Below are positions 2,902 to 33,549 of a stretch of 64,000 nucleotides of DNA, piece after piece. The DNA is from an uncultured Candidatus Saccharibacteria bacterium (GTDB taxonomy: Bacteria > Patescibacteriota > Saccharimonadia > Saccharimonadales > Saccharimonadaceae), in the NCBI GenBank assembly GCA_964584145.1, contig CAZOYU010000002.1, positions 19,956 to 83,955 of the forward strand, in the 5' to 3' direction. The stretch's first letter is position 1. Every line of letters starts with the position of its first letter. Below the pieces are notes generated by a model. That model saw nothing but the letters and a program-made list of their open reading frames with translations, made no database searches and was not told the origin of the DNA. The position numbers were made by a program, and so were the translations under genes.

Positions 2902-2948
2902 CCGTCAATAGACCGCATTGCTACTAGTTAGCATTTCGCCAACTGTAA

Positions 2949-13750: not shown

Positions 13751-15184
13751 TTGCTTTTTTGCTTTGCGCTGATTTTTGGAATCATTCTTGCTCGGATTCT
13801 TGGCATGATCGTTGATGTATTATTATTGTGTCTGCTTGCTTTGCTGTGTCTCGGGTTAAGCTTGGCCTATCGCAACTTCCTGCGTCTTATCTTTGCGTTC
13901 GTTTCTGGTATCTGTGCTGGTTATGCGCGCCAAGTTGTTATTCTGCAGGACCAAGCAAAACTCGCCGCATATTACGGACAAGAGATAGTTCTGGTAGGTG
14001 TTCTTTTAGAAGATGCTACCGAGCGGGAAGCGCAGCTTCGCCTTCGTATCGGCGGCTTATCCCTTAATTATAGCACAAATATTAAAAATTGTCAAGTATA
14101 TGCCATTCTGGCGAGCTCTTCGGCGGGTGCTTCGACAGATTTGCGCCGTTCTGACCGTGTTACTCTGCGCGGGCGTCTCTCTGAAGGCTTTGGCGAATAT
14201 GCTGGTTTCGTTTATCGCCCCGAACTTGTTTCGCTGGGCAAACCTAGTCCGCCCGATTTTGCCAATCAGCTCAAGCAACGTTTTGCGGAGAATATCCAGT
14301 CGCTTTTTGAACCAGAAGTTTCTAGCCTCGCCCTCGGCTACCTCGTCGGCGACAAGAGTGGCATGTCTGAAGATTTTACTGAGCAATTACGCCTTGCTGG
14401 TCTTTCTCATCTCGTCGTCACTTCTGGCTTTCATCTCTCAATTCTGCTTTCTGTCGTCAAGAAAATTCTTGGCAAAATTTCTCGCGCCGCCATTATTCTT
14501 GGCACGCTCGCTGTTGTACTTGCTTTTATTTCCGTCACAGGCTTCAGTGCCAGCATGGCGCGCGCTGGTTTAATGAGTCTACTCGCGCTATTTGCTTGGT
14601 ATTTTGGTCGTAAATTCCACCCCGCTCGGCTTTTTCTTTATGTTGTCGCGCTCACGCTATTGCTTAATCCTTATAACCTCCAGAATATTGGCTGGCAACT
14701 TTCTTTTGCTGCCTATTTCGGCATTATCTTTTTTGCGCCGGTCCTGACGAAATACCTCTATGGCTGCGCTAAGCCCGGCTTTCTTACTGGCGCTTTTCTC
14801 GTTTCGCTTTCTGCGCAACTCTTCTGTCTGCCGATTAGTATTTACTATTTTGGCATGTTCTCAGTTGCGGGCCTGTTTCTCGGTCTCATCATCTCGCCCA
14901 CCATCGCACCCATCATGGCGCTTACTTTGCTTAGCGGTACATTCCTGCCGCTTGCTGCTAAGCCAACAGTCCTCATCATCCGGATTCATCTCTATCTCAT
15001 TAATCTTGCTGCGCAAATTCCTTGGGCGAGCTTTACGCTACCTGCCGGCAATGCCGTTATCCTGCTGGCTTACTTGCCCCTATGCGTACTTCTTTTCATC
15101 CTCAAGCGGCGCAGTCATTACGATTTCCGTCCACAGGCTACCCTAGCTAAAAGCCAAAAATATGGTAGAATATATGCATGTTAA
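13751..15184 (+). CDS. comEC: ComEC/Rec2-family DNA internalisation channel, short form without C-terminal metallo-beta-lactamase domain
   Basis: 477 aa and polytopic. Competence-domain signature (LAGLSHLVVTSGFHLSIL ... SVTGFSASMARAGLM). TTG start from the ORF track, so the exact start is uncertain. Confidence 0.8.
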   Translation: MLFCFALIFGIILARILGMIVDVLLLCLLALLCLGLSLAYRNFLRLIFAFVSGICAGYARQVVILQDQAKLAAYYGQEIVLVGVLLEDATEREAQLRLRIGGLSLNYSTNIKNCQVYAILASSSAGASTDLRRSDRVTLRGRLSEGFGEYAGFVYRPELVSLGKPSPPDFANQLKQRFAENIQSLFEPEVSSLALGYLVGDKSGMSEDFTEQLRLAGLSHLVVTSGFHLSILLSVVKKILGKISRAAIILGTLAVVLAFISVTGFSASMARAGLMSLLALFAWYFGRKFHPARLFLYVVALTLLLNPYNLQNIGWQLSFAAYFGIIFFAPVLTKYLYGCAKPGFLTGAFLVSLSAQLFCLPISIYYFGMFSVAGLFLGLIISPTIAPIMALTLLSGTFLPLAAKPTVLIIRIHLYLINLAAQIPWASFTLPAGNAVILLAYLPLCVLLFILKRRSHYDFRPQATLAKSQKYGRIYAC

Positions 15185-17589: not shown

Positions 17590-18342
17590 ATGAGCTCAAA
17601 TAATCACCAATCTATTAATGAGCCAAATCAAGCCCCCGCACCTGATGATGTGTCGCTTCTTACTCCACCGAGTAACGACATCTCATCTGCGGATTCCGAG
17701 GTGAAGTTCAAGAGCGAAGATATTTCTAAGAAAAAACATACTCATTTCTTCCTCCATGTCAAAGAAGATGAAGATTCCGCAAAGGCCGCCCTGCGCCAAG
17801 CCAAAGCTGATAAGCGTCGCCGCACCTGGCGCCGTCATTGGCTGAAATTTTCCCTTGCTGGTGTTCTTGCACTTGCCGTTTTGATTGGCGGCGGCATCTA
17901 TATTAAGCACGTTGTTGATACTAAGGTTCAAGAAACCGCCGAAGCTGAAGCACTAGAGATTACTATTGCCGCCACATCGGCTGCCGGTGACAAAATTGTT
18001 GAAATTCGTAATTTGATGTATTCTGGTTCGCCTACCGCTCTTGACGACGTTAGAGATGCCTACGAAGACGCCATTTCTAACTCTGACGATATTATAGAGC
18101 GTCGCACTTTGGAGATCAGCTATGTTGAATATCTAACTTTTTTTGAAAAGCGGTATGCTGAAGCGCTCGAAAAACTTAATGTTTATGTTGAGCAATATGA
18201 AGATAAGGACCAATGCATAATTATTAATAGCTACATTGATATTTACATTGGCCTCGAAGACACTGAAAACATTGAAAAATATGAGGAACTTCGCGCGCAA
18301 AAATGTGCTACGGGTGAAAGCGACAATGAAGACTATCTCTAA
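17590..18342 (+). CDS. cassette protein A1: bitopic membrane protein with disordered/basic cytoplasmic head, one TM helix and an acidic helical ectodomain
   Basis: 250 aa. Motifs KSEDISKK..HFFLHVKEDEDSAKAA, basic stretch KRRRTWRRHW, TM LAGVLALAVLIGGGIYI, then a helical Asp/Glu/Tyr-rich C-terminal domain. Same architecture as A2 and A3. Confidence 0.85.
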   Translation: MSSNNHQSINEPNQAPAPDDVSLLTPPSNDISSADSEVKFKSEDISKKKHTHFFLHVKEDEDSAKAALRQAKADKRRRTWRRHWLKFSLAGVLALAVLIGGGIYIKHVVDTKVQETAEAEALEITIAATSAAGDKIVEIRNLMYSGSPTALDDVRDAYEDAISNSDDIIERRTLEISYVEYLTFFEKRYAEALEKLNVYVEQYEDKDQCIIINSYIDIYIGLEDTENIEKYEELRAQKCATGESDNEDYL

Positions 18343-21300
18343 GTTTCCGAAGGTCGTTCGAGCGTTCGTTCTTGCGACGATTATCTGTGCGCTTTTTGCG
18401 CAGAATATCTTTGCGAGTGGGTGGGGGGATTATGGGGGTGGTGCCGGTGGCGGGAGCTGCGCACCGCAAAATGCTACTCTTTGGGAAGATACCTGCTTTG
18501 GCGGTGCATGGGAATACTATGAGTATGTCGATAATTATATAGGTGAAGTTACTACTTATAGCTACGGCAGGTATGCGACAGGTATGACAATTCCCAAAGT
18601 TTGCTCTGAAATTGGCGGTTTTTATAGTTTTGGTATGATTCCTTACAATAACAGATACACCAGTGTTTACGATAGGATACAGAATGCTAACTGGGGCGTT
18701 TATCCAAGTAAACAACAAATGGGCACACTGAGGAAAGTCGGAAGTGCCGTAATACCTTTTTTGCCATATGATCAGATAAAGAACATCAAATCGAATTCGG
18801 TTGCAAAAAAGGGGTCAGGGGAATTTAGGGGTTATTCAGGAACGGGATTAAGCTATAAAGAGACTGGCGCTAAGTCTACGGGATATGCGGACCCAGATCA
18901 GGTATCAAAGGACTTTGAGAAAGCGAAAGATGCTGGTGTTATAGAGAATGGCGTTACGAAGGAAAATGTTGCCGCCTTCTGCTATGGCCCAAATATGCCG
19001 GGGGGAAGTAAAGCCAGTACTTTCGATTCCAGCTCCAAAGCGACAGTTAGTGGCGCCAGTGTAACTACTGGCTGGTCTGGTTGGGATTCGAAAACTACCA
19101 CTTCATATACTACAACTAGCTCAAGTGTCACGCTTGATTTTGAACATAAATTACGCAGAGTAGGCACTGGTGACAATATTAGTAATGCGGTGAGTGTTGG
19201 CTGGACTATTAGTAGTGCTTATAGTGCTTCTGGCACCGCCAGCTGGCCAGCCAATGTTGCCGGCGAAAAGAGTAATATTGGCGGGAAAAGCGTCACGGTT
19301 AATATAGCGCGCGGCGAAACAAAAACTGTCTGCGCCACCATTACGCACGCCAGCAAGATTAGCGGCAATACATCGAGCGGCAGCGAGAGCTCTACTGCCT
19401 GCATTACAATCACCCGCGAAGGTGGCGGTAGTAGCACTTGTGAGACTGGCAGAGGCGCATACCATAACAACATCGGCAGCACTGGCGTCAGCAAAAATGG
19501 CGGAGACTTCTCCTTTTCTGGCGATAATCCTAATGGAGATTTTAGTCGAAGTAACGAATTCGGCAATTATGTTAGTCTGACTAGTATCTGGGCCAAACCG
19601 GGCGATTCTATTCAATTTATGCATAGGATTTGTGCCGGCGCACAGAGCGTCGTTGACGATCCGAAGTCCGATCTCGGCAGTAGTTACAATACCTCTTATG
19701 ATTTTTCTGCTATTACCGCTTTCGACGGTGGTGCAAATATTGACTATCTCTTCGGTAATACGCTCGGGCAGCGCAAGAATAGCATCTCCGCCTCCGAACT
19801 AGAAGGGGAAAATTACGAGCTAGCTATTAGTTCGCCTAGTGAGGGCGCCAATTATGGCTGTAATCAAATGTCTGGCTCATCGATTATCGGTTACTATCGT
19901 ATTCCGAGCCTTTCCCATAACAACAACTGTCGGTCCGCTTCCGCAACTAGGCTTTCCGATGCCGGCAATACTATTACTCAGACTATGTCCTGGAAAGATC
20001 TTCGGGCCAAAGTGACTAGACATCATGAGAGCTGGACGGATAGCGAAGGTCATCACCATAGTCGTACCTGGTATACCACGGACGTCGATAGCACGCATAA
20101 CGGTAGTCGTACCTTTACTTCCGCCGCCAGCGTCTATGTTCCTTACAACTACATCATTAAGCCTTATATCGTGAGAACGGACGAAAGTAATTCGATTGTC
20201 ACGCTGGGCGGCGAAATCTCGACCAACGTTTATCTCCCCGTCGATAAGCGCGAAAACAAGCAAGTTGGCGGGACCTATGCCACTCAAACTAAACCGACTA
20301 AGGTTAAGGTCATTTCCTACGTTGCCAGCTCATTAAATACGCCTACTTCCGAAATTAGCTACTACGTCGACACGAATGGCGTCGCCACCAATAATCTTTG
20401 CTCAAGAATCAAGGGTAATGGGAGCGATCGGACCGTCACTAGGACTTGCAGAGTTGTCAAAGAAGAATCTGACGTAATCCTTAACGAGAACCCTACCGGC
20501 AATCTTGATGGCACCTATTCTTCTTCCGATTCCAAAAACAATAACGTCAATGCTGGCGGTTCATACTATGGAAATATTTCTGCAACCGTCCCTGACGCCG
20601 GTGATGATAACTATAATATCGGCGATCACTTCTGCATTGCTGTTGCGACTTGGCCAGGCGACAGCCATAATAGTGGCGCAGCGTCGTCCATCAATAAATC
20701 CAATCAACAGGTCGCCCTCTCCGATGATGCTGGCTCCGGCGCTCAGTGGTCCATCTCGGCGCCAACTTGTGTCACAATCGCCAAGAATCCAACTTTCAGC
20801 GTTGAAGGCTCGCAATTAGCTACTACTGGCAATGTTAGCTCGTCGGTCTTCAATCGTAGCGGCAAATATTATTATAGTTCTTGGTCTGAATATGGCATTG
20901 TTGCCGCCGGAGCTGTCAATAATACGGCTTCTGGTGCGGCAACCACCTACATTAATGCACTTGGTCTTAAATCTTTCAACAACCCCAATTACACTATTGG
21001 TCTAAAAGAGACAAATCTTGCTAGCGTTAGCGCCGGTGCTCATAATGGTGGCGGTCAAATCTTTAACTCACAGACTATGTATAATAAAAATGTTAACAAA
21101 CCGGGTGGCGCTACTAATTTGGGCATTGGTGAAGATATTCGTGACTTCTATGAATCTATTAAGAATGTCTATACACGCAAAGCAGACGATGCGTACCGGG
21201 ACGAGGCTGGCGTAAAATCCTATAACGATATATATCGCGTAAAGAATTCGTGGGGGCGGTATGTTTCGCCTACCAAATATAATGGTTATTATGATATCAC

Positions 21301-22123
21301 GCCTAATGCGGCTTACGCTTGTAAATATGACGCCCAGAAGGGTTATTACGTTGTGGCCAGTGGAGATATGGCCCGCGCTACGAAAATAGATTCTAAGACC
21401 GGAAGAGAAGTTAATACTGCGCCATACTATTGTCTAGACAATGGCGCCAAGTATCACCATGTTGTTGGCAATGCTTATATTGGTAACGCTAACGATGATA
21501 GTATCGCAACTCAGCTTCGTCTCTTTGTTGACGACCTTAAGAGCGGTGACAGTCAAGAGACTTATCGCAACCAGACTATGGTCATTCATGTCGAGGGTAA
21601 ACTCGTAATTGACGCTAATTTTATAATCGCAAACTATTATAACGGCCAAGAAGCCGACCGCTTTACAGATATTCAGCAAATTCCGCAAATTATTATCATT
21701 GCTGACAGTATTGATATTACCGCCAACGTCACTCGTATTGATGCCTGGCTTATTGCGGACATTGATAATGGTACTATTAATACCTGTGCCTACGACAATT
21801 TTAACGGTTTTCGTAGTGGGCAATATATTAATAGCGTTGGCAAGAGTTCTACGCTCACTGCGAATAAATGCAGTCGCGAGCTAGTTATTAATGGCCCAGT
21901 CACGACTAAGAATCTCATCCTTAATCGCACTGCTGGTGCTGGCACTCAGCCTTCGCGATTCAACTACAGTGGCACCTCGCTTCAAGCCAACGATGCTTAT
22001 TATGTTCAGCGCGGCGAAATCTTTAATCTCCGCCCTGATGCATATCTTTGGGGGTACTACCAAGCCCAGCGCAACGGTATCATTACGACCGTCTATTCGC
22101 ACGAATATCCAACCCGTTATTAA
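18326..22123 (+). CDS. cassette protein B1: giant secreted protein (1265 aa), unknown family
   Basis: The ATG at 18326 gives a Sec-type signal peptide (MKTISKFPKVVRAFVLATIICALFAQNIFA/SG) and overlaps the A1 stop by 17 nt. The ORF-track start 18236 lies inside A1. Shares its C-terminal ~845 aa with B2 and B3. Confidence 0.9.
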   Translation: MKTISKFPKVVRAFVLATIICALFAQNIFASGWGDYGGGAGGGSCAPQNATLWEDTCFGGAWEYYEYVDNYIGEVTTYSYGRYATGMTIPKVCSEIGGFYSFGMIPYNNRYTSVYDRIQNANWGVYPSKQQMGTLRKVGSAVIPFLPYDQIKNIKSNSVAKKGSGEFRGYSGTGLSYKETGAKSTGYADPDQVSKDFEKAKDAGVIENGVTKENVAAFCYGPNMPGGSKASTFDSSSKATVSGASVTTGWSGWDSKTTTSYTTTSSSVTLDFEHKLRRVGTGDNISNAVSVGWTISSAYSASGTASWPANVAGEKSNIGGKSVTVNIARGETKTVCATITHASKISGNTSSGSESSTACITITREGGGSSTCETGRGAYHNNIGSTGVSKNGGDFSFSGDNPNGDFSRSNEFGNYVSLTSIWAKPGDSIQFMHRICAGAQSVVDDPKSDLGSSYNTSYDFSAITAFDGGANIDYLFGNTLGQRKNSISASELEGENYELAISSPSEGANYGCNQMSGSSIIGYYRIPSLSHNNNCRSASATRLSDAGNTITQTMSWKDLRAKVTRHHESWTDSEGHHHSRTWYTTDVDSTHNGSRTFTSAASVYVPYNYIIKPYIVRTDESNSIVTLGGEISTNVYLPVDKRENKQVGGTYATQTKPTKVKVISYVASSLNTPTSEISYYVDTNGVATNNLCSRIKGNGSDRTVTRTCRVVKEESDVILNENPTGNLDGTYSSSDSKNNNVNAGGSYYGNISATVPDAGDDNYNIGDHFCIAVATWPGDSHNSGAASSINKSNQQVALSDDAGSGAQWSISAPTCVTIAKNPTFSVEGSQLATTGNVSSSVFNRSGKYYYSSWSEYGIVAAGAVNNTASGAATTYINALGLKSFNNPNYTIGLKETNLASVSAGAHNGGGQIFNSQTMYNKNVNKPGGATNLGIGEDIRDFYESIKNVYTRKADDAYRDEAGVKSYNDIYRVKNSWGRYVSPTKYNGYYDITPNAAYACKYDAQKGYYVVASGDMARATKIDSKTGREVNTAPYYCLDNGAKYHHVVGNAYIGNANDDSIATQLRLFVDDLKSGDSQETYRNQTMVIHVEGKLVIDANFIIANYYNGQEADRFTDIQQIPQIIIIADSIDITANVTRIDAWLIADIDNGTINTCAYDNFNGFRSGQYINSVGKSSTLTANKCSRELVINGPVTTKNLILNRTAGAGTQPSRFNYSGTSLQANDAYYVQRGEIFNLRPDAYLWGYYQAQRNGIITTVYSHEYPTRY
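21557..22123 (+). repeat. paralogous C-terminal module of B1 (ETYRNQT ... EYPTRY)
   Basis: FTDIQQIPQIIIIADSIDITANVTRIDAWLIA ... QRGEIFNLRPDAYLWGYYQAQRNGIITTVYSHEYPTRY. Near-identical blocks occur in B2 and B3. Confidence 0.9.
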
Positions 22124-22148
22124 AAAATCACGAAATTTTGCTAAATAG

Positions 22149-22157
22149 TGCTAGTAT
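22149..22157 (+). promoter_or_regulatory. extended -10 (TGcTAGTAT) 6 nt upstream of the A2 ATG
   Basis: agTGcTAGTATataaacATG. No SD sequence and no terminator hairpin in the 40-nt B1-A2 spacer. Confidence 0.4.
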
Positions 22158-22163
22158 ATAAAC

Positions 22164-23249
22164 ATGAGCGAAAACGACTCAAGGCTTTTTGGCGAAGTTG
22201 ATTTTGATCCAACTGCAGCGTCTGACTCTCCCGCGACTCCCATTACCGATTCGCCGAATATTTCTAGTGCCGCTGACGAAGAGCGAAAACAAGAGGCTGC
22301 CGTCGATGCCGCGCGGCGCCGTACTGAAACTGTCGATATTGATAGCATTCCACTTGATAAAAAAGATGTGTATTTTAAAGCTGAAGATATTAAGAAACCG
22401 ACCGACGCAAGTTATTTTGTGAATGTTGAGGGTGAAGCGGAGCGTAAACGCGACGAAGCGCGTCGCGCTCGCGAACAAGCTGAACTTAAACGGCGCGCCG
22501 CCGCCGAAGATGCACAAAAGGCTGCTGCTAAGAAAAAAGCTGCGGAGCAGGCCGCTGCCCGCAAAGCTGCTGCCGAAAAGAAGGCCGCCGCTGCGACCGA
22601 CAAGCGTGTGCTAGGCGAACTTATGCGCAAGGCTCATGCTCGCAAAAAAGAAAATCGTCGCGTGCGTTTTCGTCGCCATCGGCAAAAGCTACGCGATCGC
22701 CTATTCAAAGGTGGCAATAAATTTATCACACTCGGCGCCACTCTCGCCGCCGCGGCATTGGTTCTAACTTTTGTCGTCATTCCGCTGCAACAAGCCGACG
22801 AGCGCCGTCAAGCCGACGAGCTTGCTCGACAGCAAGCTGCGGAATATGAACGGCGAAAAGAAACTGACGAATCGTTAATCGTTGAGGCAATTATAAATGA
22901 GGCTGATGAGCGTCTTGAATCGTATGATCTGGATGGCGCAGACGTTATTTACAATAATGCACTCGACAAGGCAACAAGCGATGAGTTGCGCTCTTATATC
23001 TACTTACATCGGTCACAGAAAATCTATCGGCTCATGTATGATTTGGAGCCAGAACGGGTCTACGAGGATGCTCTGAAAGCCTATGAATATGGACAAAAAT
23101 CTTATGAGGCTGTCAGTTGGTTGGCGTGGATTTATGAGTGTCGCAACGAAGATAATAAAGCTGCCGAGCTTCAGGGGCTACTTGAGCAAATCGTAAAAGA
23201 GCAAGCGAGCGAATCCTCTGAAAATAATACTGGAGAAGGACAAGGATAG
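22164..23249 (+). CDS. cassette protein A2: bitopic membrane protein with acidic head, long Ala/Lys/Arg coiled coil, TM helix and TPR-like ectodomain
   Basis: 361 aa. MSENDSRLFGEVDFD, VDIDSIPL, YFKAEDIKK, YFVNVEGE, about 60 aa of AEQAAARKAAAEKKAAA-type sequence, TM ITLGATLAAAALVLTFVVIPL, then a helical repeat domain (ALDKATSDELRSYIYLHRSQ...ALKAYEYGQKSYEAVSWLAWIY). Confidence 0.88.
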   Translation: MSENDSRLFGEVDFDPTAASDSPATPITDSPNISSAADEERKQEAAVDAARRRTETVDIDSIPLDKKDVYFKAEDIKKPTDASYFVNVEGEAERKRDEARRAREQAELKRRAAAEDAQKAAAKKKAAEQAAARKAAAEKKAAAATDKRVLGELMRKAHARKKENRRVRFRRHRQKLRDRLFKGGNKFITLGATLAAAALVLTFVVIPLQQADERRQADELARQQAAEYERRKETDESLIVEAIINEADERLESYDLDGADVIYNNALDKATSDELRSYIYLHRSQKIYRLMYDLEPERVYEDALKAYEYGQKSYEAVSWLAWIYECRNEDNKAAELQGLLEQIVKEQASESSENNTGEGQG

Positions 23250-23255
23250 TGCAAA

Positions 23256-26200
23256 ATGACGAATAACTTTTTAAGAGTGGTTGCGGTGGTCGCAACGATA
23301 ACTATATGCAGTCTTTTTCTGTGGACTGATAATGCTAATGCTGCAAGGACAAGCTGTGATAGTAGTAAAATATTTATCAATACAAGTTTGATTGCAAACT
23401 CGATTACGGACGCGAGCATTCAAGATATTGGCGCACTCGATGGTACCAGAGACTCGTCTATTGTTGGCACGGGCGCATGGGCGTGCGCTGAAACTAGCCG
23501 GGGAATTTTCTTTATTGCCGATAGTGTTGACCATGATGTGAATACCGGTAAATATATTATCAATCTTGATGTGAAAGTTAATCCAGAAAGTACGCGAAAC
23601 ACCGCGATTGCCATGGGCATGATTAACTATAAGCAAGAATCCGTAATCGATCAAAACGTTTATGCTATAAATATAAAATATTGTACCCAGGATTTTGAAT
23701 ATAGCTTCGTCTATGGTAAAGGCTATGATAACGTTGAATGTCCGGACGGGAGAGATGATGCGGGTGGCATAATAAATCAATATGGCTCAATTGTGCAGCG
23801 ACAAGGTGCCAATGATAATGTCTCAAGCGGGGCGTATGCCTATTGGTCGGAGCCTAAATATACATCCTCAACAATAAATGTTGATGGAACCGTTTTGAGT
23901 GCTAAATTAAATAATACTACTTTTAAACACGATAATGTCGTGAGGACTATTAATAATGGCAACACTTACGTAATAAAGTTATGGCAATGGCGCTGTTGGT
24001 CCTATGACATGTATAATTATAATAAATATAATAAAGATGCTTGCGCATCGAACCCGATTCTATTGGCAGTCGATATGAGTTGGAGTACGACTTTTGCCGG
24101 TAAGGTGGATAATATTAACGTCTCGGGCGCGAGCTATAATTCTTCTGACGGTAAATATTATACCGATAATGACGAGATTGATATTAAATATAACTATTAT
24201 CTTGCGAGAAATAATAATGGGCCAGACAAATCAGTGCAGGGGGGGTATACTACATATATATCATCCGGTGATGGCGCAAATGGCAATGTGAAATTATCAA
24301 AAAATTCTGGTTGGGCATGGGTGGCTTCTAGGACGGAGAGTGGACGTTCATTGAGTTATGGCGATAATACAATCTGCGGTAGAATTGGCTATTTTGTTAC
24401 AGTTAGTAGTGAAGGTGGCGGTAAAAATAAAGATTGGACCGAATCGTCAAAGTGTATTACTGTTCATAAATACAGTTGGTATGAATTTGAAGGTCAAGTC
24501 GTTCCATATGTTAATGATGTCTCAAAATCGAGCGGTAGCACCGTCTGGATTGACGGCAATTCTGCGAAGCTCAAGTTTGTACACCAACTTAAACGCACTG
24601 GCAGTGCCCAGACTCGCTACGGTACCAGCAAAAGCTCCAACTTGTCCAGTATTTTTAGTATTCAAAATTGGTATGGTACTTCTTCGTTAACTAACAATAA
24701 TAGTTGGCAGACGCAGAAAACTAGTGGCGATTCTGATTCTACTGTGAATATTGCTAAAAGCGATAGCGGATCTACCTATTGTCAATATCTGAAGTACTAT
24801 AAAACGGTACGCGATGATAGTAAAGATTTTAGAAACCAAGAAGAAAAGAGCGCCTGTGTCACCCTCAAACGTTATAAAACCAATTTTACTGGTAAGACTA
24901 CGGTTACTGTCAATGGCAAGGAATATAGTGATGGTGACACGATTACCGTTGAGAGTTCCGATGGTAAAATACCTGTGACCGTGCCGGTTGTCTTTAAGCA
25001 TACTGTTACGCGCAACTCTGAAAGCACGCCGCCATCCGCGCCAAGCAATAAAAAATCTAGTATCGCGATCTCGACTTCTGGCACTTCTGGCTGTCGTTCT
25101 GGCGATCCTTGCGGAACCAATACTAGTGCCGAGGATACCGACGAGCTCGCTTCTGGCGCCTCCTATACAAAGACACAGTCCATCAATACCAAAGTTTATC
25201 CAGACCAGACTATTAAAATCTGTCAACAAATGACCTACAAGAATCAAATTTGGGGCAGTAGCGAAAGCACTGCAACTGCCGACCAGGTCTGCGTTACGCT
25301 CAAGATGGATAAGGCGCTCTGCTCGGATAATACTCAATTTGGTATTCACGACGGTCAAAACCTCGGCTCGCTCAGTATTAGTAAAAATGTTAATAATAGC
25401 GACAGTAATACCGTCGTCAAATCTGGCGCCAAGAATACTGGCAGTACCGAAATAACAATGTGGGCTAAACCGGGTGACAATATCAGCTTCACGCACGATT
25501 CCTGTGCCGCCGCCGACTTGCCGAACCAGTTCCATAATAATGGCAAGACTACCACCTATAACGTCTCCGCCGGCCGCTCTAGCTCCTCCGGTTCGCTCGA
25601 CGCGACGGGTTATCTTTTTGGCAATAGTATCGGCTCCGAGCCATATACTAGCTCTTCTGCCACTATCGCTACTACCAACGCCAATTCCGGCACTGGACCA
25701 TTCAAGAGTGGCCAATATGCCGCGACTTATAAATCGCCAAGTACTAAATCCGACACCGACTATACTTGTACGACCGACTATTATGGTAATAGTCATCAAT
25801 CGAAAACTAATTATTATCAAATTACTTCTGATGTCGCCAAGACCAGTACGCTCACTAGCGCCCGCTGCAATTCTTACGTGAAAACTATTAATAATTCTAC
25901 GGACTATGCGATTGGCTCCAACGTCGGCACCTCTTTCTCGCAAACGCTTTCTTGGACCGACCTCTGGATTAGCAATGATTCTGTCGACAGTAGTCACAAC
26001 GGCTCTAAGACTGCCAGTATTAAAGGTACCGTTAGCGTGCCATACAATTACTACCTCTATCCGTATGTCGGCAATAATAGCACTAGCACTACTCAGACCG
26101 TCACTCCAGGGGCAAGCCTGAAAGCTAATGTTTACTTACCTGTCATGCAGCGCGAGAATAAGCAAGTTGGCGAAACTTATGCCACGCACACTAAGCCAAC

Positions 26201-28169
26201 CACTATTCGTGTCGTTTCTTTCATTATGCGTAGCGGTAGTCCGGCCAGCGACATTTCCTATACTAACGGCACCGAAACGCTTAACTATTCCAATATTTGT
26301 CGAATTGCCGCAGGTGGCAATAGTACGCTCAGTTGCACTATTCTCAATAACGGCGAAACGGATAACACTTACGAAAAACGCTATGTCTTAAATGCCTCGA
26401 CCAAAGACCAGCTAGGCGGCACGCTGAACGACACTAGCTTGATTACTTCTAGTGTCGCTGATACTAACGATAGCAATATTGTCTTGTCGCGTTCTGGATC
26501 AGTCGTGATGAATAGTGTTTCTGTTGATGTGCCGGAAACCACTATCAATAATCAGCAGGGCAGCCTTCGTCTTGGTGATAAGGTTTGTATCGCGGTTGCG
26601 GCTTGGCCAAGCGACAGCCATAACCTCGGCGCTGCTACCTCCGTCGACAGCACTAACCAATCTGTCGCGCTGACTAGCTCTGGCTCCGGCTCGCAATGGG
26701 TCGTTTCTGTGCCATACTGTTCGACGGTCGCCAAAACACCAAGCTTTAGCGTAGAAGGCTCGCAGCTTTCCGTTTCCGGCGATGTTACGACTTCTAATGT
26801 AACTCACAACGGTCGTCGCTACGGTTCATGGACAGAATATGGTTTGCTCGCTGGTGGCACAGTTACGAATATGACTTCAGGCGCTGCTACCGCTTATATT
26901 GATGCTCAATCGCTCGTTGTAACTAGTGGCACGGAATATGTTCTTAAATATAGCGCCGCTAACCGCACCGCTAGCGCTACTAAAGCAGGCGCCAATAGTA
27001 AAACGGCTAGTGTTTGCCTTTATAATTCGCAGACTTATCTCAAAGATTACGATTGTAATAATGCAGGTGGTGCGTCTACGATCGTGACCGAAGATAGTAT
27101 CAACGATATTCTTGAACGTATCCGCGATGTTTATACCCGCAAGAATAGTACTAGCAATTATCATGAAGAAGCGGGCGTCAAACGCATTAATGACCTTCAA
27201 TATGCTTGGGACTACGACGGCTCTAGGACTGATATCAAGATTGATGTTAATGGTAAATCTTACTACGACCTCTCGCCGCGCAATGCTTATGCTTGTGAAT
27301 ATAGCGAAGACCTCGGCTACTATGTCCCGAACAGCAAAGATGCCGAGCGTGCTATTACTACCGACGGCAAGAAAACTGCGCCATTTTACTGCCTCTCTAA
27401 CGGTGCCCATTATTACTATGTCGAAGGTGATGCCTATATTGGCGCGCAGAGCGATAGTATCTATGGTCAGTACCTCAACTTTGTTGATGACCTTACTGGT
27501 AGCTCCGATCAAGAAACTTATCGCAACCAGACCATGGTTGTACACGCTACTGGTACGCTCGTGATTGACACCAATCTTATTGTCGATAGTTACTATTCGG
27601 CTTACAACGGCTATCACCGCGTCGATCTCTTTACGGATATTCAGCAGATTCCGCAGATTATCATTATCGCCGACAAGATTCAAATCACCTCTAGCGTGTC
27701 CCGTATTGATGCTTGGCTAGTCGCGGATGGGCTCGACAGCGGCAATGGCGAGATTAATACCTGCGCCTACGAAAACTTTAATGCCTTTAAGCGCGGCGAA
27801 TATATCAAACAGGCGGGCAACGGTAGTCTCTTAAGCGCCAAGAATTGTGACCGCACGCTCATGTTTAATGGCCCAGTTTTCGCTAAGAGTATTATTCTGA
27901 ATCGCACTGCTGGTGGCGGTACTAAGGTGCTTGGCGCAGCCGAGCAATGGAATAGCTCTAGCGGTGGCGGTCATGGTCGCTATGACTGGTGGTATGGCCA
28001 TGTTCAGCAGAGTTCTGGCCAAACGCTCGCCATTGACGCAACCACTTATGCTCAGCGTGGCGAAATCTTCAACCTTCGTGCTGACACTTATCTTTGGGCC
28101 TACTATCAAGCTCAACGTAACGGCATTCTTACGACCGTCTTCACCAAAGAATTGCCAACGCGTTATTAG
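23256..28169 (+). CDS. cassette protein B2: giant secreted protein (1637 aa), unknown family
   Basis: Signal peptide MTNNFLRVVAVVATITICSLFLWTDNANA/A. Starts 6 nt after the A2 stop, with a GGAGAAGGA SD-like site inside the A2 3' end. N-domain shared with B3, three ~100-aa Cys-bracketed modules, then the common core. Confidence 0.92.
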   Translation: MTNNFLRVVAVVATITICSLFLWTDNANAARTSCDSSKIFINTSLIANSITDASIQDIGALDGTRDSSIVGTGAWACAETSRGIFFIADSVDHDVNTGKYIINLDVKVNPESTRNTAIAMGMINYKQESVIDQNVYAINIKYCTQDFEYSFVYGKGYDNVECPDGRDDAGGIINQYGSIVQRQGANDNVSSGAYAYWSEPKYTSSTINVDGTVLSAKLNNTTFKHDNVVRTINNGNTYVIKLWQWRCWSYDMYNYNKYNKDACASNPILLAVDMSWSTTFAGKVDNINVSGASYNSSDGKYYTDNDEIDIKYNYYLARNNNGPDKSVQGGYTTYISSGDGANGNVKLSKNSGWAWVASRTESGRSLSYGDNTICGRIGYFVTVSSEGGGKNKDWTESSKCITVHKYSWYEFEGQVVPYVNDVSKSSGSTVWIDGNSAKLKFVHQLKRTGSAQTRYGTSKSSNLSSIFSIQNWYGTSSLTNNNSWQTQKTSGDSDSTVNIAKSDSGSTYCQYLKYYKTVRDDSKDFRNQEEKSACVTLKRYKTNFTGKTTVTVNGKEYSDGDTITVESSDGKIPVTVPVVFKHTVTRNSESTPPSAPSNKKSSIAISTSGTSGCRSGDPCGTNTSAEDTDELASGASYTKTQSINTKVYPDQTIKICQQMTYKNQIWGSSESTATADQVCVTLKMDKALCSDNTQFGIHDGQNLGSLSISKNVNNSDSNTVVKSGAKNTGSTEITMWAKPGDNISFTHDSCAAADLPNQFHNNGKTTTYNVSAGRSSSSGSLDATGYLFGNSIGSEPYTSSSATIATTNANSGTGPFKSGQYAATYKSPSTKSDTDYTCTTDYYGNSHQSKTNYYQITSDVAKTSTLTSARCNSYVKTINNSTDYAIGSNVGTSFSQTLSWTDLWISNDSVDSSHNGSKTASIKGTVSVPYNYYLYPYVGNNSTSTTQTVTPGASLKANVYLPVMQRENKQVGETYATHTKPTTIRVVSFIMRSGSPASDISYTNGTETLNYSNICRIAAGGNSTLSCTILNNGETDNTYEKRYVLNASTKDQLGGTLNDTSLITSSVADTNDSNIVLSRSGSVVMNSVSVDVPETTINNQQGSLRLGDKVCIAVAAWPSDSHNLGAATSVDSTNQSVALTSSGSGSQWVVSVPYCSTVAKTPSFSVEGSQLSVSGDVTTSNVTHNGRRYGSWTEYGLLAGGTVTNMTSGAATAYIDAQSLVVTSGTEYVLKYSAANRTASATKAGANSKTASVCLYNSQTYLKDYDCNNAGGASTIVTEDSINDILERIRDVYTRKNSTSNYHEEAGVKRINDLQYAWDYDGSRTDIKIDVNGKSYYDLSPRNAYACEYSEDLGYYVPNSKDAERAITTDGKKTAPFYCLSNGAHYYYVEGDAYIGAQSDSIYGQYLNFVDDLTGSSDQETYRNQTMVVHATGTLVIDTNLIVDSYYSAYNGYHRVDLFTDIQQIPQIIIIADKIQITSSVSRIDAWLVADGLDSGNGEINTCAYENFNAFKRGEYIKQAGNGSLLSAKNCDRTLMFNGPVFAKSIILNRTAGGGTKVLGAAEQWNSSSGGGHGRYDWWYGHVQQSSGQTLAIDATTYAQRGEIFNLRADTYLWAYYQAQRNGILTTVFTKELPTRY
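27513..28169 (+). repeat. paralogous C-terminal module of B2 (ETYRNQT ... ELPTRY)
   Basis: FTDIQQIPQIIIIADKIQITSSVSRIDAWLVA ... QRGEIFNLRADTYLWAYYQAQRNGILTTVFTKELPTRY. Confidence 0.9.
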
Positions 28170-28204
28170 CGATTAACCCTCTCAGAGAGGCTAACCAAAA
28201 TTCC

Positions 28205-28235
28205 AAAAAGCTAGCATTTTTTCGCTAGCTTTTTT
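28205..28235 (+). terminator. rho-independent terminator after B2
   Basis: AAAAAGCTAGCattttttcGCTAGCTTTTT. Sequence-related to the rny terminator at 17535-17562. Confidence 0.8.
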
Positions 28236-28248
28236 AGTTCGATTTCAG

Positions 28249-28254
28249 TAAGAT
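28249..28254 (+). promoter_or_regulatory. -10-like box (TAAGAT) 6 nt upstream of the A3 ATG
   Basis: cagTAAGATataagcATG. No SD sequence. Confidence 0.4.
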
Positions 28255-28260
28255 ATAAGC

Positions 28261-29052
28261 ATGAGCGCCAATGATTCTCGGCCTTTTGGCGAGGTGAATC
28301 CAGATTCTTCCACAGATTCCTCTGCGGATTCTCCACATTTTGTTTCCCCGAATATTACTGATGCTGCCGAAGAGGAGCAAAAGGCGCAGGCGCAAGCCGC
28401 CGCCGAGCAGAGGCAAGCCGAAACTGTGAATATTGATGGTGTTCCGATTGCTGATCAGGATATTCAATACAAAACGCGCGATATTGTTGCTAAGAAAGCT
28501 GATGCGAAATATTTCGTGAATGTTAAGGAAGAGGAGGATGCTGCGAAAGCGCAGGCGCATCAAGCTAAAGCGGCTCAGCACAAAACTCGTTGGCGTCGCT
28601 ATGGCCGCCCAATTTTGGTTGTCGCTATTGTTCTTATTCTCGCTGCTGCTGGCGGTTTTGTCGCAAGATATTTTCTCGATCGGCAGGACGAAGAGGCAAA
28701 AGCGGCTGTTGAGGAATTGCTCTATGAAGCGGCTGATTGTTTAGAGGCGTCCAATCTCGATTGTGCGAATGAATACTATGAGAAGGCGCTCAGTCGTGCG
28801 GCGACGGATGAAGAGCGTTCGTTTGTCTATCTTCATTACTCTCAGTCCCTCGATGGGCTTATGCGTGATCAAGAATCAAATCGAATATATGAGTATGCGC
28901 TCAAGGCCTATGAGTTGAATCCTAATGACCGCAGTATAGTTTGGTGGCTTGTTGATGTTTATAATAATCGCGGCGAGGAAGATAAAGCGAAGGAATTTGA
29001 AGAGAAGCTAGAAGCATTGCCGGTAGATGAAGATGAATATGGAGAAGGGTGA
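28261..29052 (+). CDS. cassette protein A3: bitopic membrane protein, paralog of A2
   Basis: 263 aa. MSANDSRPFGEVNPD, VNIDGVPI, YKTRDIVAKK, YFVNVKEEED, RWRRYGRP + TM ILVVAIVLILAAAGGFV, then a TPR-like ectodomain (YYEKALSRAATDEERSFVYLHYSQ...ALKAYELNPNDRSIVWWLVDVY). Confidence 0.88.
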   Translation: MSANDSRPFGEVNPDSSTDSSADSPHFVSPNITDAAEEEQKAQAQAAAEQRQAETVNIDGVPIADQDIQYKTRDIVAKKADAKYFVNVKEEEDAAKAQAHQAKAAQHKTRWRRYGRPILVVAIVLILAAAGGFVARYFLDRQDEEAKAAVEELLYEAADCLEASNLDCANEYYEKALSRAATDEERSFVYLHYSQSLDGLMRDQESNRIYEYALKAYELNPNDRSIVWWLVDVYNNRGEEDKAKEFEEKLEALPVDEDEYGEG

Positions 29053-29053
29053 A

Positions 29054-32000
29054 ATGAAGATTAAAATAAAGACCGTTGCCTTGATTGCTATCGTTGCTAT
29101 TTTTTCTACGACGCTTTTGGGGTTTGGTAAAAATGAAGCTTATGCGAAGGCCTGGACTCTGTCTAGATCTAACGATAGGGGTAATTGTCTAACTGGCGGT
29201 GGCCGTATTGATGTTGTTTCTAAAGCGAAGAAAAACGGCAAAACAGTAATCAGAGATATTGGTGACTTGGGCAATTTTGGTCAATTGGGTAATGAGAATA
29301 AATACGATGAATATAGTGGCGGTTGGGCATGCGCACGATGGTACGAAACGGGGAATATGTGGCATGGAATTATGTTCATAGCTAGCAGTGTCGAGGAGAC
29401 CGGAAGCGGGAATAATAAACAGTACAAAATCAACGTCGATGTCAGTGTTAATTTGAAAAGTAGCAATAACACGGCAATTGCTATGGGCATGGTTCATACT
29501 GGTAGCAATGCAACGAATAAGGCTATAAATATCGAGTATTGTACGCATTATTATGCTAATACAGGGTGGTGCACGGATAAGACTAAAGGTGCAGATGGTA
29601 TTATATCTAGTTACGACAAAACCGTGCTTCGGCAGAACTCACGCAACCGGCCAACTAGTAGCTATAGTTACTGGACCCCGCCAATTCACGCGTTAGCGAC
29701 CAGTTCGGAGCAATCATTTATAACAATTGATGGTCCAAGGCTTGCTGAAAAAATGCAAGAAACGGAGTTTGCTACAAAGAACGTTAAATATTTAGATGAC
29801 GGTTATACCGCAATCGTGCTTTATCAATACCGCTGCTGGTCGAAGAATGGTGGCACTGGAGAATGTGGCGTAAGTCCGATAGTTTTAATATTGGACACTA
29901 GCGGTACGACTGATGATCCTCCAAGCTCAACTTCTTGCGACTCCACGAACTCATATAGCAATAGCGGTAAATCCGGCGTCCGTAAAAACGGTGGCAGCAT
30001 CGCTTATACGAATAATAATTCTGGCACAGTTAGTACTTGGGCGAAACCAGGAGATTCTATTCAATTTACGCACACAACTTGTGCTGCCGCCCAAAAGCTT
30101 ATTGATGACAATCAGGCGTATCTGGGTTCTTATGATTCTAACTATACCGTTTCTGCAAGTACCACCAACGGCACCAATGGCAGAGGCTATATATTTGGTA
30201 ACGACTTGAGCGGTAACTCGTCCGCTAGTATCCCAAGTTCCACGCTAAAGAATAATGAGTATGCTTATACTGCGAATTCGCCGAGCGATGACGCTGGATC
30301 TACATATAGCTGCGATGGTGTTTACGATGGTTTCATATCGGGCCATTATCAGATTCCGGATTTGAATATTAGGAGTGACAAATGTGGGGCATCTAGGAAA
30401 ACTGTTGCGTCTGATGCTGGCAATACAATTACGCAAACATTAGCATGGCGCGACTTCGACATTAAATGGCAGACTATCTATCATGACGCCGAAATAGATG
30501 AGGCGGGCAACGTTATTAAGCCGAGAACATCTGAAAATATCCCTTATGTAAATAGTTCTACCGACTACTCCACTAGCGCCAGCGTCTATATTCCATACAA
30601 CTACATTCTCAAGCCCTATATTGAAGGAAATAAAAATGACACAGGGGATAAAAGCCAAACCGCTACCATCGGTGGCAAATACGACGTTACTGCTTATGTT
30701 CCCGTTGATGTTCGTAAAAATAAACAAGTTGGTGATACTTATGCTACTAGCACGAAAGATACCAAAATTAAAATTGTGTCGTTCGTATTGGATTCTAGTA
30801 GCCAGCCAACCAGTAGCGTTACTTATCACGCTAATAATGGCGATGCGGGGGCGAGCAGTATTTGTAGATACGCCGCTGCCAGCGGAAATGTTAAGCATTG
30901 TGCAAATATCGCCGATGAGACTATTACGCTTAACCAAAATACTTCCGGTAATCTCAGCGGCACGCTAGGCAATGAAGCTTCGATTAGTGAGGGTGGTTCT
31001 AAGCTTGTTCTTAATGACGGCATCGAGGCTTCTGTACCAAAAAATAACATCAGTCTCGGCGATAAAATTTGTGTCGCAGTCGCCACCTGGCCGAGCGATA
31101 GCCATAATCTTGGCGATGCTGCAACTGTCGATAGCTATGACCAGAGTGTTGCTCTCACTAATAGTGCGGGAAGTAACGCTAAATGGGCCGTCTCTGCGCC
31201 AAGCTGCGCCACCATCACGAAGCGCCCAATCTTTAGCGTCGAAAGTTCGCAACTTTCCGCTACTGGCACAATTAACTCCTCGACCTATACGCGTGATAAG
31301 CTCACCTTCAGCTCTTGGGCAGAATATAGCATTGCCACCTCTGAGGAAAATGGCGTTGAAGATACCGCTTCCGGCGCAGCTACTGCCTATATCGACGCGC
31401 TCAATCTTAATTATCGCTATAATCCTTACGAGCCTAAATACGCCATTGCTTCCAGGGAAGTTAATCTTGCCAATACGCGTGCTGGCACAAAAAGTACCAG
31501 AACCTTTACTGCGCAAACTATGCTCAATTCTGGTAATGGCAGCCCCGGTGGCGCTACCACGCTTGAGCTCGCTGAGAATATCGAAAAATTCTATACATCT
31601 ATCGAAAATATCTATACGCGCAAAGGCAAGACTAAGACTCAATCTGGTGCCGGTATTGCAAATTTCAATGACCTTAGCGAACTAAAAGGCTCCAAAAAAC
31701 TAACCGTCAAGAATAATTATTATGATCTCTCGATTGGGTCCTCGTATGCTTGCGTTTACGATGAAAATAAAGGTTATTATGTCGCCTATGATAGCGACGC
31801 TACGCTCGGCAAGGATAAAAAAGGCAACCCAACTGCGCCATATTATTGTCTAAGCAATGGCTCCAAGTATTATCATGTCGAGAATGCTAATGCTTATATT
31901 GGTGGTGGCGGCGAGAGAAATAGTGGCGGCTATACTCAATTTCGTCTTACTGTGAACGATCTTGATGGTTCTGGCGGTCAAGAAACTTTCCGCAACCAAA

Positions 32001-32536
32001 CTACGGTTATTCATGTTGAGGGTACGGTTGTAATTGATACTAACTTCGTCATTGCCTATAACTATGGTGGTAGGATGCTGGATTATTTCACTGATATTCA
32101 GCAGATTCCGCAAGTTATCATCATTGCCGACAATATCGATATTACTAACAATGTCTCGCGCATCGATGCATGGCTGATTGCTAAAAACAAGATTAATACT
32201 TGTGCCTACGATAACTATAGTGGCTTCATGAAAGGGAACTATATCAGTAGCGCGGCTAATGGCGGCCTAAACGCGAACCGCTGCAATAAAGAACTAGTTA
32301 TCAATGGCCCAGTCGTTGCTAATGAGATCACACTTAACCGTACCGCTGGCGCCGGCACAACTCCGGCCGAATACTACAGTAAAAAAGCCTCTCTCTCCGT
32401 CGAAGATGCCTATTATGCCCAACGCGGCGAAATCTTTAATCTCCGTTCCGACGCCTATCTTTGGGGTTATTATCAAGCTCAGCGTAATGGCATTTTGACT
32501 ACAGTCTATTCGAAAGAATTGCCGACCAGATATTAA
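29054..32536 (+). CDS. cassette protein B3: giant secreted protein (1160 aa), unknown family
   Basis: The ATG at 29054 lies 1 nt after the A3 stop, preceded by GGAGAAGGG. It gives signal peptide MKIKIKTVALIAIVAIFSTTLLGFGKNEAYA/K. N-domain shared with B2, followed directly by the common core. Confidence 0.9.
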   Translation: MKIKIKTVALIAIVAIFSTTLLGFGKNEAYAKAWTLSRSNDRGNCLTGGGRIDVVSKAKKNGKTVIRDIGDLGNFGQLGNENKYDEYSGGWACARWYETGNMWHGIMFIASSVEETGSGNNKQYKINVDVSVNLKSSNNTAIAMGMVHTGSNATNKAINIEYCTHYYANTGWCTDKTKGADGIISSYDKTVLRQNSRNRPTSSYSYWTPPIHALATSSEQSFITIDGPRLAEKMQETEFATKNVKYLDDGYTAIVLYQYRCWSKNGGTGECGVSPIVLILDTSGTTDDPPSSTSCDSTNSYSNSGKSGVRKNGGSIAYTNNNSGTVSTWAKPGDSIQFTHTTCAAAQKLIDDNQAYLGSYDSNYTVSASTTNGTNGRGYIFGNDLSGNSSASIPSSTLKNNEYAYTANSPSDDAGSTYSCDGVYDGFISGHYQIPDLNIRSDKCGASRKTVASDAGNTITQTLAWRDFDIKWQTIYHDAEIDEAGNVIKPRTSENIPYVNSSTDYSTSASVYIPYNYILKPYIEGNKNDTGDKSQTATIGGKYDVTAYVPVDVRKNKQVGDTYATSTKDTKIKIVSFVLDSSSQPTSSVTYHANNGDAGASSICRYAAASGNVKHCANIADETITLNQNTSGNLSGTLGNEASISEGGSKLVLNDGIEASVPKNNISLGDKICVAVATWPSDSHNLGDAATVDSYDQSVALTNSAGSNAKWAVSAPSCATITKRPIFSVESSQLSATGTINSSTYTRDKLTFSSWAEYSIATSEENGVEDTASGAATAYIDALNLNYRYNPYEPKYAIASREVNLANTRAGTKSTRTFTAQTMLNSGNGSPGGATTLELAENIEKFYTSIENIYTRKGKTKTQSGAGIANFNDLSELKGSKKLTVKNNYYDLSIGSSYACVYDENKGYYVAYDSDATLGKDKKGNPTAPYYCLSNGSKYYHVENANAYIGGGGERNSGGYTQFRLTVNDLDGSGGQETFRNQTTVIHVEGTVVIDTNFVIAYNYGGRMLDYFTDIQQIPQVIIIADNIDITNNVSRIDAWLIAKNKINTCAYDNYSGFMKGNYISSAANGGLNANRCNKELVINGPVVANEITLNRTAGAGTTPAEYYSKKASLSVEDAYYAQRGEIFNLRSDAYLWGYYQAQRNGILTTVYSKELPTRY
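31982..32536 (+). repeat. paralogous C-terminal module of B3 (ETFRNQT ... ELPTRY)
   Basis: FTDIQQIPQVIIIADNIDITNNVSRIDAWLIA ... QRGEIFNLRSDAYLWGYYQAQRNGILTTVYSKELPTRY. Confidence 0.9.
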
Positions 32537-32566
32537 AAGAGAAGTTTTAAAAATCGAAAACGTTAA

Positions 32567-32574
32567 TGTATAAT
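32567..32574 (+). promoter_or_regulatory. extended -10 (TGTATAAT) 6 nt upstream of the pseudopilin-1 ATG at 32581
   Basis: aaTGTATAATattactATGagtaaa. No SD sequence. The alternative ATG at 32566 lies inside the box itself. Confidence 0.45.
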
Positions 32575-32580
32575 ATTACT

Positions 32581-33549
32581 ATGAGTAAAAATGGTGGTAG
32601 GGACGTAGCGAGCGGCTTTACGATTATTGAAGTTATGCTTGTGCTTGCCGTGACGGGCTTTCTCTTCATTGGTATCCTTGGCGGCATGAGTGGCAGTCTC
32701 GCTCGCCAGCGCTACAAGGACGCCGTGCAGGATACTGCTGATAGTCTCCGTCGCATGTATTCTTATGTTGTTGATACGCAGGTCTATACACGCGAAAATG
32801 ACTCTGTCTGTTATGGTCTTACTTCTGATGCTATCGGAAATAGCAGTTTAATCTCTAATAGTAAAAATACTGGCCGTGGCCGCAGCGATTGTGTCGTTTA
32901 TGGCCTAGTTGCAACCATTGCCAATAGCCATATTGAATTCACTGAATTGGTTGGCAAAGAATACGAGGTCGTGCGTGAGGAAGTTGCCGATAAAGACAAA
33001 AAAGATACCGACACTATGAAAGACATTGAAGTCCTACAACTCGCTGGCGCAAATAATGTCGTCGCATCCGCTAAGCAGAATGGTACTTGCTCGAATATTG
33101 GCCTAGTTAATCTGCTCGAGTCTTCTGATTCACGCTGGGGTACGCGCATTCTCGATACGGATGGCAATGAACTCGCCACCACGATTCTAATCTTCCGTTC
33201 GCCGCAGTCTGGCGTCATCCGCACTTATGTTATGGACGGTACACCGAAGAATGGCGACAATATTATCCGCTATGACGAATTTAGCGAAGAGACGCATGAC
33301 TGCACTGAAAAGAATATACTCGACACTTATGGTATCAATGAATACATTGGTAAATATGAGACCGAAGGCGACGAGAAGGTTTTCAAAAGCAATTTTACCG
33401 AAAAAGAATTGAAGATCTGTATTAGTAGTGGTGATACGGGCGTGTATGACGGCCGCATGCGTATGATTAAGATCGCGAAAGGTGGTCGCAGCTCATCTGC
33501 TATCGCGCTGATTGACATGGATGACGAGGACGCAAACGAATGCAACTAG
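32581..33549 (+). CDS. type IV prepilin-like protein 1 (oversized, 322 aa)
   Basis: Class III signal MSKNGGRDVASG/FTIIEVMLVLAVTGFLFIGIL: Gly at -1, Phe at +1, Glu at +5, then a hydrophobic helix. Confidence 0.85.
   Translation: MSKNGGRDVASGFTIIEVMLVLAVTGFLFIGILGGMSGSLARQRYKDAVQDTADSLRRMYSYVVDTQVYTRENDSVCYGLTSDAIGNSSLISNSKNTGRGRSDCVVYGLVATIANSHIEFTELVGKEYEVVREEVADKDKKDTDTMKDIEVLQLAGANNVVASAKQNGTCSNIGLVNLLESSDSRWGTRILDTDGNELATTILIFRSPQSGVIRTYVMDGTPKNGDNIIRYDEFSEETHDCTEKNILDTYGINEYIGKYETEGDEKVFKSNFTEKELKICISSGDTGVYDGRMRMIKIAKGGRSSSAIALIDMDDEDANECN

Follow-up and report, generated by a model that had tools for sequence, protein, structure and literature searches.

A 64,000-nt stretch of DNA from an uncultured Candidatus Saccharibacteria bacterium (GenBank assembly GCA_964584145.1, contig CAZOYU010000002.1, positions 19,956–83,955 of the forward strand; hereafter the window, from whose first letter positions are counted) carries a gene array that combines giant extracellular proteins with minor pilins. 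All genes of the array lie on the + strand in the order A1-B1-A2-B2-A3-B3-H-I-J-K, i.e., three A-B units followed by four pilin genes, and the junctions between them are tight or overlapping. Each gene for a giant protein (B) is preceded by a small gene (A). A1 (17590–18342) encodes a small bitopic membrane protein with a cytoplasmic N-terminus carrying the conserved motif VKFKSEDISKK..FFLHV, one transmembrane (TM) helix and an ectodomain of ~149 aa, and A2 (22164–23249) and A3 (28261–29052) encode the bitopic partners of B2 and B3, respectively. B2 (23256–28169) and B3 (29027–32536), the last B of the array, have 1,637 aa and 1,169 aa. The open reading frame (ORF) of B1, 1,295 aa as listed (18236–22123), begins at a TTG codon at position 18236, and the true start is probably the ATG at position 18326, which opens a signal peptide (MKTISKFPKVVRAFVLATIICALFAQNIFA).

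The pilin set follows B3 after 29 nt and comprises minor-pilin genes of the H (32566–33549), I (33540–34364), J (34364–35227) and K (35237–36799) types, whose junctions are tiny or overlapping. After K lies a GC-rich hairpin with T-runs on both strands (36819–36834), a strong terminator that is likely the end of the transcription unit running from A1 to K. A promoter-like site (32546–32574; TTTAAA or TTAAAA, a 16–17-nt spacer, and TATAAT) was seen in the B3–H gap, and, judging from this motif, the pilin set may also be transcribed on its own.

The initial annotation described the three giants as colinear from a WAKPGD motif to the stop codon, and our analysis bears this out, with cores at 19589–22123 in B1, 25461–28169 in B2 and 30038–32536 in B3. 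The + strand translations of 19589–22120, 25461–28166 and 30038–32533 each open with WAKPGD and close with PTRY followed by the stop, and all conserved blocks quoted in that annotation were present. The cores are 832–902 aa long and aligned colinearly over 954 columns with a mean column identity of 64% (MAFFT); in this alignment the B2 and B3 cores were 47–50% identical to that of B1. Pairwise BLASTP comparisons of the three cores gave identities of 41–47% (E = 0 to 1e-176), with B1 and B3 as the closest pair. At the DNA level, where B paralogues have the same residue within the last 36 positions, the codons differ in about half of the cases, and the longest exact match between any two cores was 17–23 nt. 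These patterns reflect purifying selection at the protein level and not to recent copying. Gene conversion as the source of the near-identical blocks was accordingly rejected, since synonymous sites have diverged and no exact match is longer than 23 nt.

By inspection, B1, B2, and B3 all start with Sec-type signal peptides containing n-, h- and AxA-type c-regions, and none has a G/FTxxE motif. Ahead of the core, B2 and B3 have in common an N-terminal domain of ~280–300 aa (23256–24100 and 29027–29900; 32% identity, E = 6e-30), which is absent from B1, and B2 has a further specific region between this domain and its core. A conserved C-terminus combined with a variable N-terminus had been read as the polarity of surface adhesins, and this reading gains from the signal peptides and from core matches that reach the C-terminus across the family. 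The polarity is also the reverse of that of polymorphic toxins, as had been pointed out; those have a conserved delivery part at the N-terminus, a variable toxin at the C-terminus and an immunity gene, and a polymorphic-toxin architecture was rejected.

The likeness of the A ectodomains in the window follows the N-terminal domains of the B proteins and not their cores. The ectodomains of A2 and A3 share 42% identity, that of A1 does not detectably resemble either (BLASTP), and the B proteins paired with A2 and A3 are the two that have the N-terminal domain in common, yet the closest cores are those of B1 and B3. From these sequence comparisons, the pattern suggests that N-domain and A-ectodomain cassettes have been shuffled relative to the core. 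A syntenic relative of the window array (17590–32536) also contains three A-B units (locus L001, 8356–22576). In its first unit the N-domain of B is of the B2/B3 type and the ectodomain of A is of the A2/A3 type, which is not the case in the first unit of the window, indicating that array composition turns over between related genomes.

A word-indexed search retrieved only 25–33 relatives of the giants, and the named ones were all annotated as 'hypothetical protein [Candidatus Saccharibacteria]'. Family size is given here from an exhaustive hidden Markov model (HMM) search, for which the profile was built from 11 trimmed cores, and is counted as cluster representatives at 50% identity. This search found 4,085 representatives at E ≤ 1e-3, of which 2,116 were at E ≤ 1e-30. 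In nearly every listed protein the core match reached the C-terminal end, and the N-terminal region ahead of it ranged from ~0 to 1,400 aa. A 5.4-kb contig with an A-B pair is labelled as a Clostridiales metagenome-assembled genome (L004, JAISVU010000052.1); it is probably a mis-binned Saccharibacterial contig and not a family member outside the phylum. The B family was not described in the literature that we searched on Saccharibacterial type IV pili (T4P) and tip complexes. What is new is the protein family together with its size, the A partner, and the array organisation; the class of mechanism to which we assign it below is already known.

Searches of Pfam, NCBIfam, PDB, and BFVD did not map the core to any known domain family. 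In Pfam, B1 and B3 had no match at E ≤ 1 and B2 had two sub-threshold matches to unrelated families, and in NCBIfam none of the three giants had a match at E ≤ 0.1. Single-sequence (phmmer) and profile searches against PDB sequences returned nothing relevant to the B core. The B3 core was modelled with AlphaFold2 (AF2) from an alignment of 36 sequences (pLDDT 75, pTM 0.64), and the model was mainly beta, with a disordered linker at core residues 448–508 and a C-terminal domain ending in a helix (804–816). Foldseek searches with this model against PDB and BFVD gave nothing at E < 1e-3, the best PDB E-value being 6e-3. Weak Foldseek matches to Ig-like adhesin, sortase-pilin and CDC-like structures (probability ≤ 0.18) were not taken as homology. 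As judged by sequence and predicted structure, the B core is no known domain. In the middle of the core we observed a near-invariant W-P-S-D-S-H-N motif (P352, D354, S355, and H356 in B3-core numbering), which could be a metal or catalytic site, and the conserved core cysteines (C15, C116, C345, C390, C722, and C749) could form disulfide bonds.

The last 36 residues of the giants (B1, 22013–22120; B2, 28059–28166; B3, 32426–32533; + strand) form an invariant C-terminal module whose conservation is ungapped across the family. The module of B3 reads (A)EIFNL....YLW.Y.QA.R......TT(V)Y..ELPTRY, all three window giants share the PTRY end noted initially, and the family consensus is AEIFNL....YLW.Y.QA.R.SQA.TTY.REL[PA].RY-COOH. 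Of the 169 family members fetched, 155 end in RY, and the others end in R[FLM] or KY, except for the truncated member P0009. For 168 members the alignment of the last 36 residues is gap-free up to the C-terminus, so the peptide is kept in orthologues as well as in the paralogues for which it was first described, and it ranks among the most strongly constrained segments of this very large family. The YLW motif, present in 153 members, is spaced exactly 26 residues from the terminus in 152 of them, and the most conserved positions of the tail are E-35, F-33, W-24, Q-20, E-6, L-5, R-2, and Y-1. The final letters are APRY in 61 members and PTRY in 38; APRY is thus commoner, and the Thr is not conserved. 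Neither extension nor deletion is tolerated at the very end, suggesting that the free terminus itself is recognised. In the AF2 monomer model of the B3 core, the last 13 residues had pLDDT < 50. Low pLDDT despite high conservation fits a peptide that is bound by a partner, as far as a model of the monomer can suggest. The B proteins have a conserved extreme C-terminal peptide of ~10 residues at a free terminus, as do proteins of the tip-adhesin class.

To examine the gene context of B elsewhere, loci were gathered through B alone and hence without bias towards pilins. Four loci came from genomes, seven from encoding contigs and 52 from metagenomes, and they were annotated with HMMs built in this study. 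Among the 57 B genes with at least 1 kb of downstream sequence, 19 were directly followed by an H-I-J-K set, 13 by another A-B unit, and 24 by something else, and one was ambiguous. The 19 B genes ahead of H-I-J-K, namely one in the window and 18 on independent contigs, represent 14 distinct tail sequences. When only the B genes standing alone or ending an array were counted, 19 of 44 (43%) directly preceded the pilin set. From an expectation of roughly one such set per ~1,000 genes of a ~1 Mb genome, we infer that the B-pilin linkage is far beyond chance. Both A-containing loci (the window, L002, L013, L017, L039, and L040) and loci without any A gene (L010/L038, L023–L029, and L050) were found among those with B next to pilins.

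Two of these loci had additional features. At L008 (2–9767), the H-I-J-K set is upstream of B, with genes for an SLH-domain protein and a 216-aa bitopic protein in between and a CotH-family gene after B, showing that the order of the linked genes is not fixed. At L010, a 1,738-aa protein rich in RCC1 repeats is encoded on the opposite strand (1–4914, − strand) upstream of the B-H-I-J-K locus, at a distance of ~2 kb and with three small genes between. It recalls the RCC1 beta-propeller of PilX2, a candidate adhesin of the Saccharibacterium TM7x.

The H, I, and J proteins of the window have prepilin motifs with Glu at position +5. H has SG/FTIIE with an N_methyl motif and a weak GspH match, I has PG/DTIIE with a weak GspI match, and J has KA/FTIIE with an N_methyl motif and a weak ComGE match. 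The same Glu was seen in every H, I, and J family member whose prepilin motif could be recognised. K has a prepilin-like N-terminus (G/AASMY) without Glu at +5 and comes last in the H-I-J-K order, as in the PilK/GspK family, and position +5 was F or Y in 18 of 18 K-family proteins. The AF2 model of K (pLDDT 76) showed a 66-residue N-terminal helix of the pilin type followed by a beta domain. Some K homologues have been named PilX by JGI and NCBI.

The absence of Glu+5 is a stated hallmark of the PilK-family tip pilins, which invariably lack it (PMC13533445). In the systems studied by Ellison et al. (PNAS 2026, PMC13533445), the last ~10 residues of PilC/PilY1 complete the small beta-sheet of a PilK-family pilin in trans. 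Pilus initiation requires this peptide, which is also partly sufficient for it, and both piliation and tip retention of the adhesin depend on it (PMC13533445). For PilC and PilY1, fusing such terminal residues to the C-terminus of the pilin has been shown to give partial rescue in the absence of the adhesin. Like PilC/PilY1 of the type IVa pili of Neisseria, Pseudomonas, Acinetobacter, and Myxococcus, B is a large Sec-exported non-pilin encoded with minor pilins of the H-I-J-K types, and its C-terminal half is conserved while its N-terminal half, the adhesive one in PilC/PilY1, is variable. Several paralogues per genome occur in both groups, e.g., PilC1 and PilC2 in most N. gonorrhoeae strains (PMC13533445). 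Unlike PilC/PilY1, however, B shows no detectable sequence or fold homology to them, and its gene is upstream of H and not after K. We know of no counterpart of the paired bitopic protein A in PilY1 systems.

MshQ of the Vibrio cholerae MSHA pilus provides a precedent for such a role in an unrelated family; it is a protein of ~1,200 aa without homology to PilY1 and is encoded beside pilIJK homologues (PMC13533445). AlphaFold modelling predicts the same strand donation for MshQ, from its C-terminus to the PilK homologue (PMC13533445). In contrast to B, MshQ is encoded downstream of the pilins and is a protein of a diderm bacterium, and no relation between the two was detectable from the B profile. 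Among Saccharibacterial T4P proteins, PilX1 and PilX2 of Nanosynbacter lyticus TM7x have been proposed as tip adhesins and have no predicted PilD signal (PMC11623550). They differ from B in being modular pilins of a few hundred residues, not Sec-exported giants with an RY tail, and the TM7x study of PilX1 and PilX2 does not mention a B-like protein (PMC11623550).

As B has the genomic and sequence attributes of the PilC/PilY1-MshQ functional class, we propose it as their non-homologous analogue. On balance we think it somewhat probable, by analogy with these systems, that the B giants are Saccharibacterial tip adhesins of a type IV filament and that their RY tail is a docking strand. The terminal peptide ..TTY.REL[PA].RY-COOH, with the last 12–13 residues as the docking strand, would add a beta-strand in trans to the K-type pilin (35237–36799), the proposed acceptor of the tail. 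With the added strand gripped by the I-J pair, B would be mounted on the priming complex that comes to lie at the tip of the pilus. The conserved core of ~830 aa would serve as stalk and docking body, and the variable N-terminal regions may be interchangeable modules for adhesion or host recognition. On this proposal B paralogues of one genome, whether scattered or arrayed like the three of the window, would keep one tail because they compete for a single H-I-J-K set. A docking role for the C-terminal part had been suggested initially and is retained here, but the cell-proximal anchor suggested with it is not, and given the downstream minor-pilin genes we prefer a cell-distal location at the pilus tip.

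Several observations weigh against the tip-adhesin proposal. B is not homologous to PilY1, with no match in Pfam to the C-terminal PilY1/PilC beta-propeller domain (Neisseria_PilC/PilY1) and no PilY1 structure among the Foldseek matches listed. B sits upstream of H, and pilY1 usually comes after pilX. Neither the pilins nor another A-B unit followed 24 of the 57 B genes. K resembles GspK/XcpX of the type II secretion system (T2SS) and ComGG of the Com pili in being fourth in its set, in lacking Glu+5, and in having a long N-terminal helix, but searches with the K model and profile did not place it with them. The Foldseek search of the K model against PDB gave no GspK or XcpX and no match at E < 1e-3, its top matches being leukocidins and picornavirus jelly rolls (E ≥ 0.09), and the K profile had no match among PDB sequences. 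In addition, the Pfam family PilX_N matched only 1 of 40 K homologues, and that weakly. K might also supply its own terminal strand in cis, in which case the B tail would not be needed. In the T2SS and Com systems the strand is supplied in cis, by GspK/XcpX and ComGG, and the cis arrangement is reported for the Com pili of monoderm bacteria (PMC13533445). Furthermore, the T4P1 of Southlakia has an essential four-gene set resembling H-I-J-K (one GspH-family protein, two pilin-fold proteins, and one TadG-like protein), and the published description of the Southlakia T4P loci shows no giant adjacent to it. Finally, an A-family HMM match was found directly upstream of 25 of the 45 B genes with complete 5' ends, making A as frequent a neighbour of B as the pilin set is.

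This last point is the starting point of the strongest alternative, in which A and B are a self-contained two-component surface adhesin, with A as the anchor and B displayed, and the pilin neighbourhood reflects only the co-regulation of attachment genes. The stop and start codons of A and B often overlap, the two have been duplicated jointly as units (in the window, L001, L009, L019, and L022), and many A-B pairs have no pilin gene nearby. The paired divergence of A ectodomains and B N-domains in the window, described above, can also be read in its favour. Nevertheless, B directly adjoins H in 14 distinct lineages, which we infer to be far above chance in genomes of ~1 Mb, and B-H-I-J-K loci without A occur in at least three lineages. 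In a set of 19 A-B pairs, the covariation of the A ectodomain with the B N-domain and with the core was not separated, both partial correlations being ~0.27. We consider this alternative unlikely.

The composition of A itself also bears on the tail. A proteins consist of a cytoplasmic N-terminal region of ~35–200 aa, one TM helix and an ectodomain of 95–170 aa, and their conserved part is the TM helix together with the cytoplasmic motif [VI]x[FY][KRS][ST]x[DE]I.KK....[YF]FVNV. The ectodomain, which faces B, is poorly conserved, and that of L002 looks different again. The initial annotation had raised the idea that the tail is bound by a TPR-like A ectodomain. We do not retain this idea, because an invariant peptide should have an invariant receptor, the ectodomain is variable, and B-pilin loci without A exist. 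Under the tip-adhesin proposal, A would instead be a paralogue-specific, membrane-anchored accessory that may hold or escort its B at the membrane. The Saccharibacterium studied here is a monoderm epibiont, whereas diderm bacteria rely on periplasmic retention, and a membrane-escort role of A for a secreted giant may be reasonable in a cell without a periplasm.

Alternatively, the tail may be an intramolecular element of the core, such as a strand or a latch that folds back, and not a docking peptide; B may still be an adhesin or otherwise extracellular in that case. The last 36 residues, including the predicted helix 804–816, form a single conserved block that runs on from the core, and the low pLDDT of the last 13 residues could stem from the shallow alignment of 36 sequences. 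However, the rest of the C-terminal domain was confidently modelled from the same alignment, and the intolerance of the family's very end to any extension or deletion suggests a free terminus that is recognised. An intramolecular role is in our view improbable.

That the tail serves in sorting, secretion, or processing, as a signal for, e.g., cell-wall attachment, an exporter, or a peptidase, leaving B wall-bound or released, is very improbable: ELPTRY superficially resembles the LPxT sortase motif and one locus (L007) has a sortase gene ~7 kb from B, but the Thr varies as shown above, the motif is not followed by Gly, a hydrophobic segment, or a charged tail, no sortase, peptidase, or exporter gene is among the conserved neighbours of the B loci, and no sorting domain was matched in Pfam or NCBIfam. 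A sortase LPXTG signal in particular was rejected, as the proteins end in ...LP(T/P/S)RY or ...LAPRY with nothing after. An outer-membrane beta-signal was rejected on sequence features.

Outside the array, the window contains recA-recX (4242–6016) 12 kb and comEC (13751–15184) 3 kb upstream of the A-B units, and no pilus machinery genes. In TM7x, a recAX operon lies inside the T4P machinery locus (PMC11623550). An ORF of 344 aa (61049–62083) had a sub-threshold match to the Pfam family T4SS_pilin (PF18895; E = 1.5e-5, 25.4 bits compared to a gathering cut-off of 26.6) and may be part of the Gram-positive-like type IV secretion system described in Saccharibacteria. A further gene (38506–40947) encodes an 813-aa protein with a weak DHH-family N-terminus followed by a very long low-complexity region rich in Ala, Pro and Glu.

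The proposal bears on the question of how Saccharibacteria and other Patescibacteria find and attach to their bacterial hosts. T4P are known to be required, and no adhesin has yet been assigned to the essential type of pilus (PMC11623550, PMC10633639). If the B proteins are tip adhesins, a function would be assigned to a dark family that comprises more than 4,000 clusters (50% identity), and the variable N-domains and A-B arrays would become candidate host-range determinants that are readable from metagenomes. Trans beta-strand addition would then be extended to a monoderm lineage and to a third adhesin family unrelated to the other two, which would support it as a general principle of how type IV filaments are assembled. 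The invariant tail of 12–13 residues also offers a precise experimental handle. A more far-reaching idea, which we put forward tentatively as possible, is that the A-B units are swappable host-recognition cassettes, in which one universal C-terminal plug, common to thousands of giant adhesins across the phylum, loads any paralogue on the same priming complex and thereby on the pilus tip, and A, as a cognate membrane escort, replaces periplasmic retention. If so, the host bacteria to which an epibiont can attach would be determined by its set of B N-domains and could be read from its genome.

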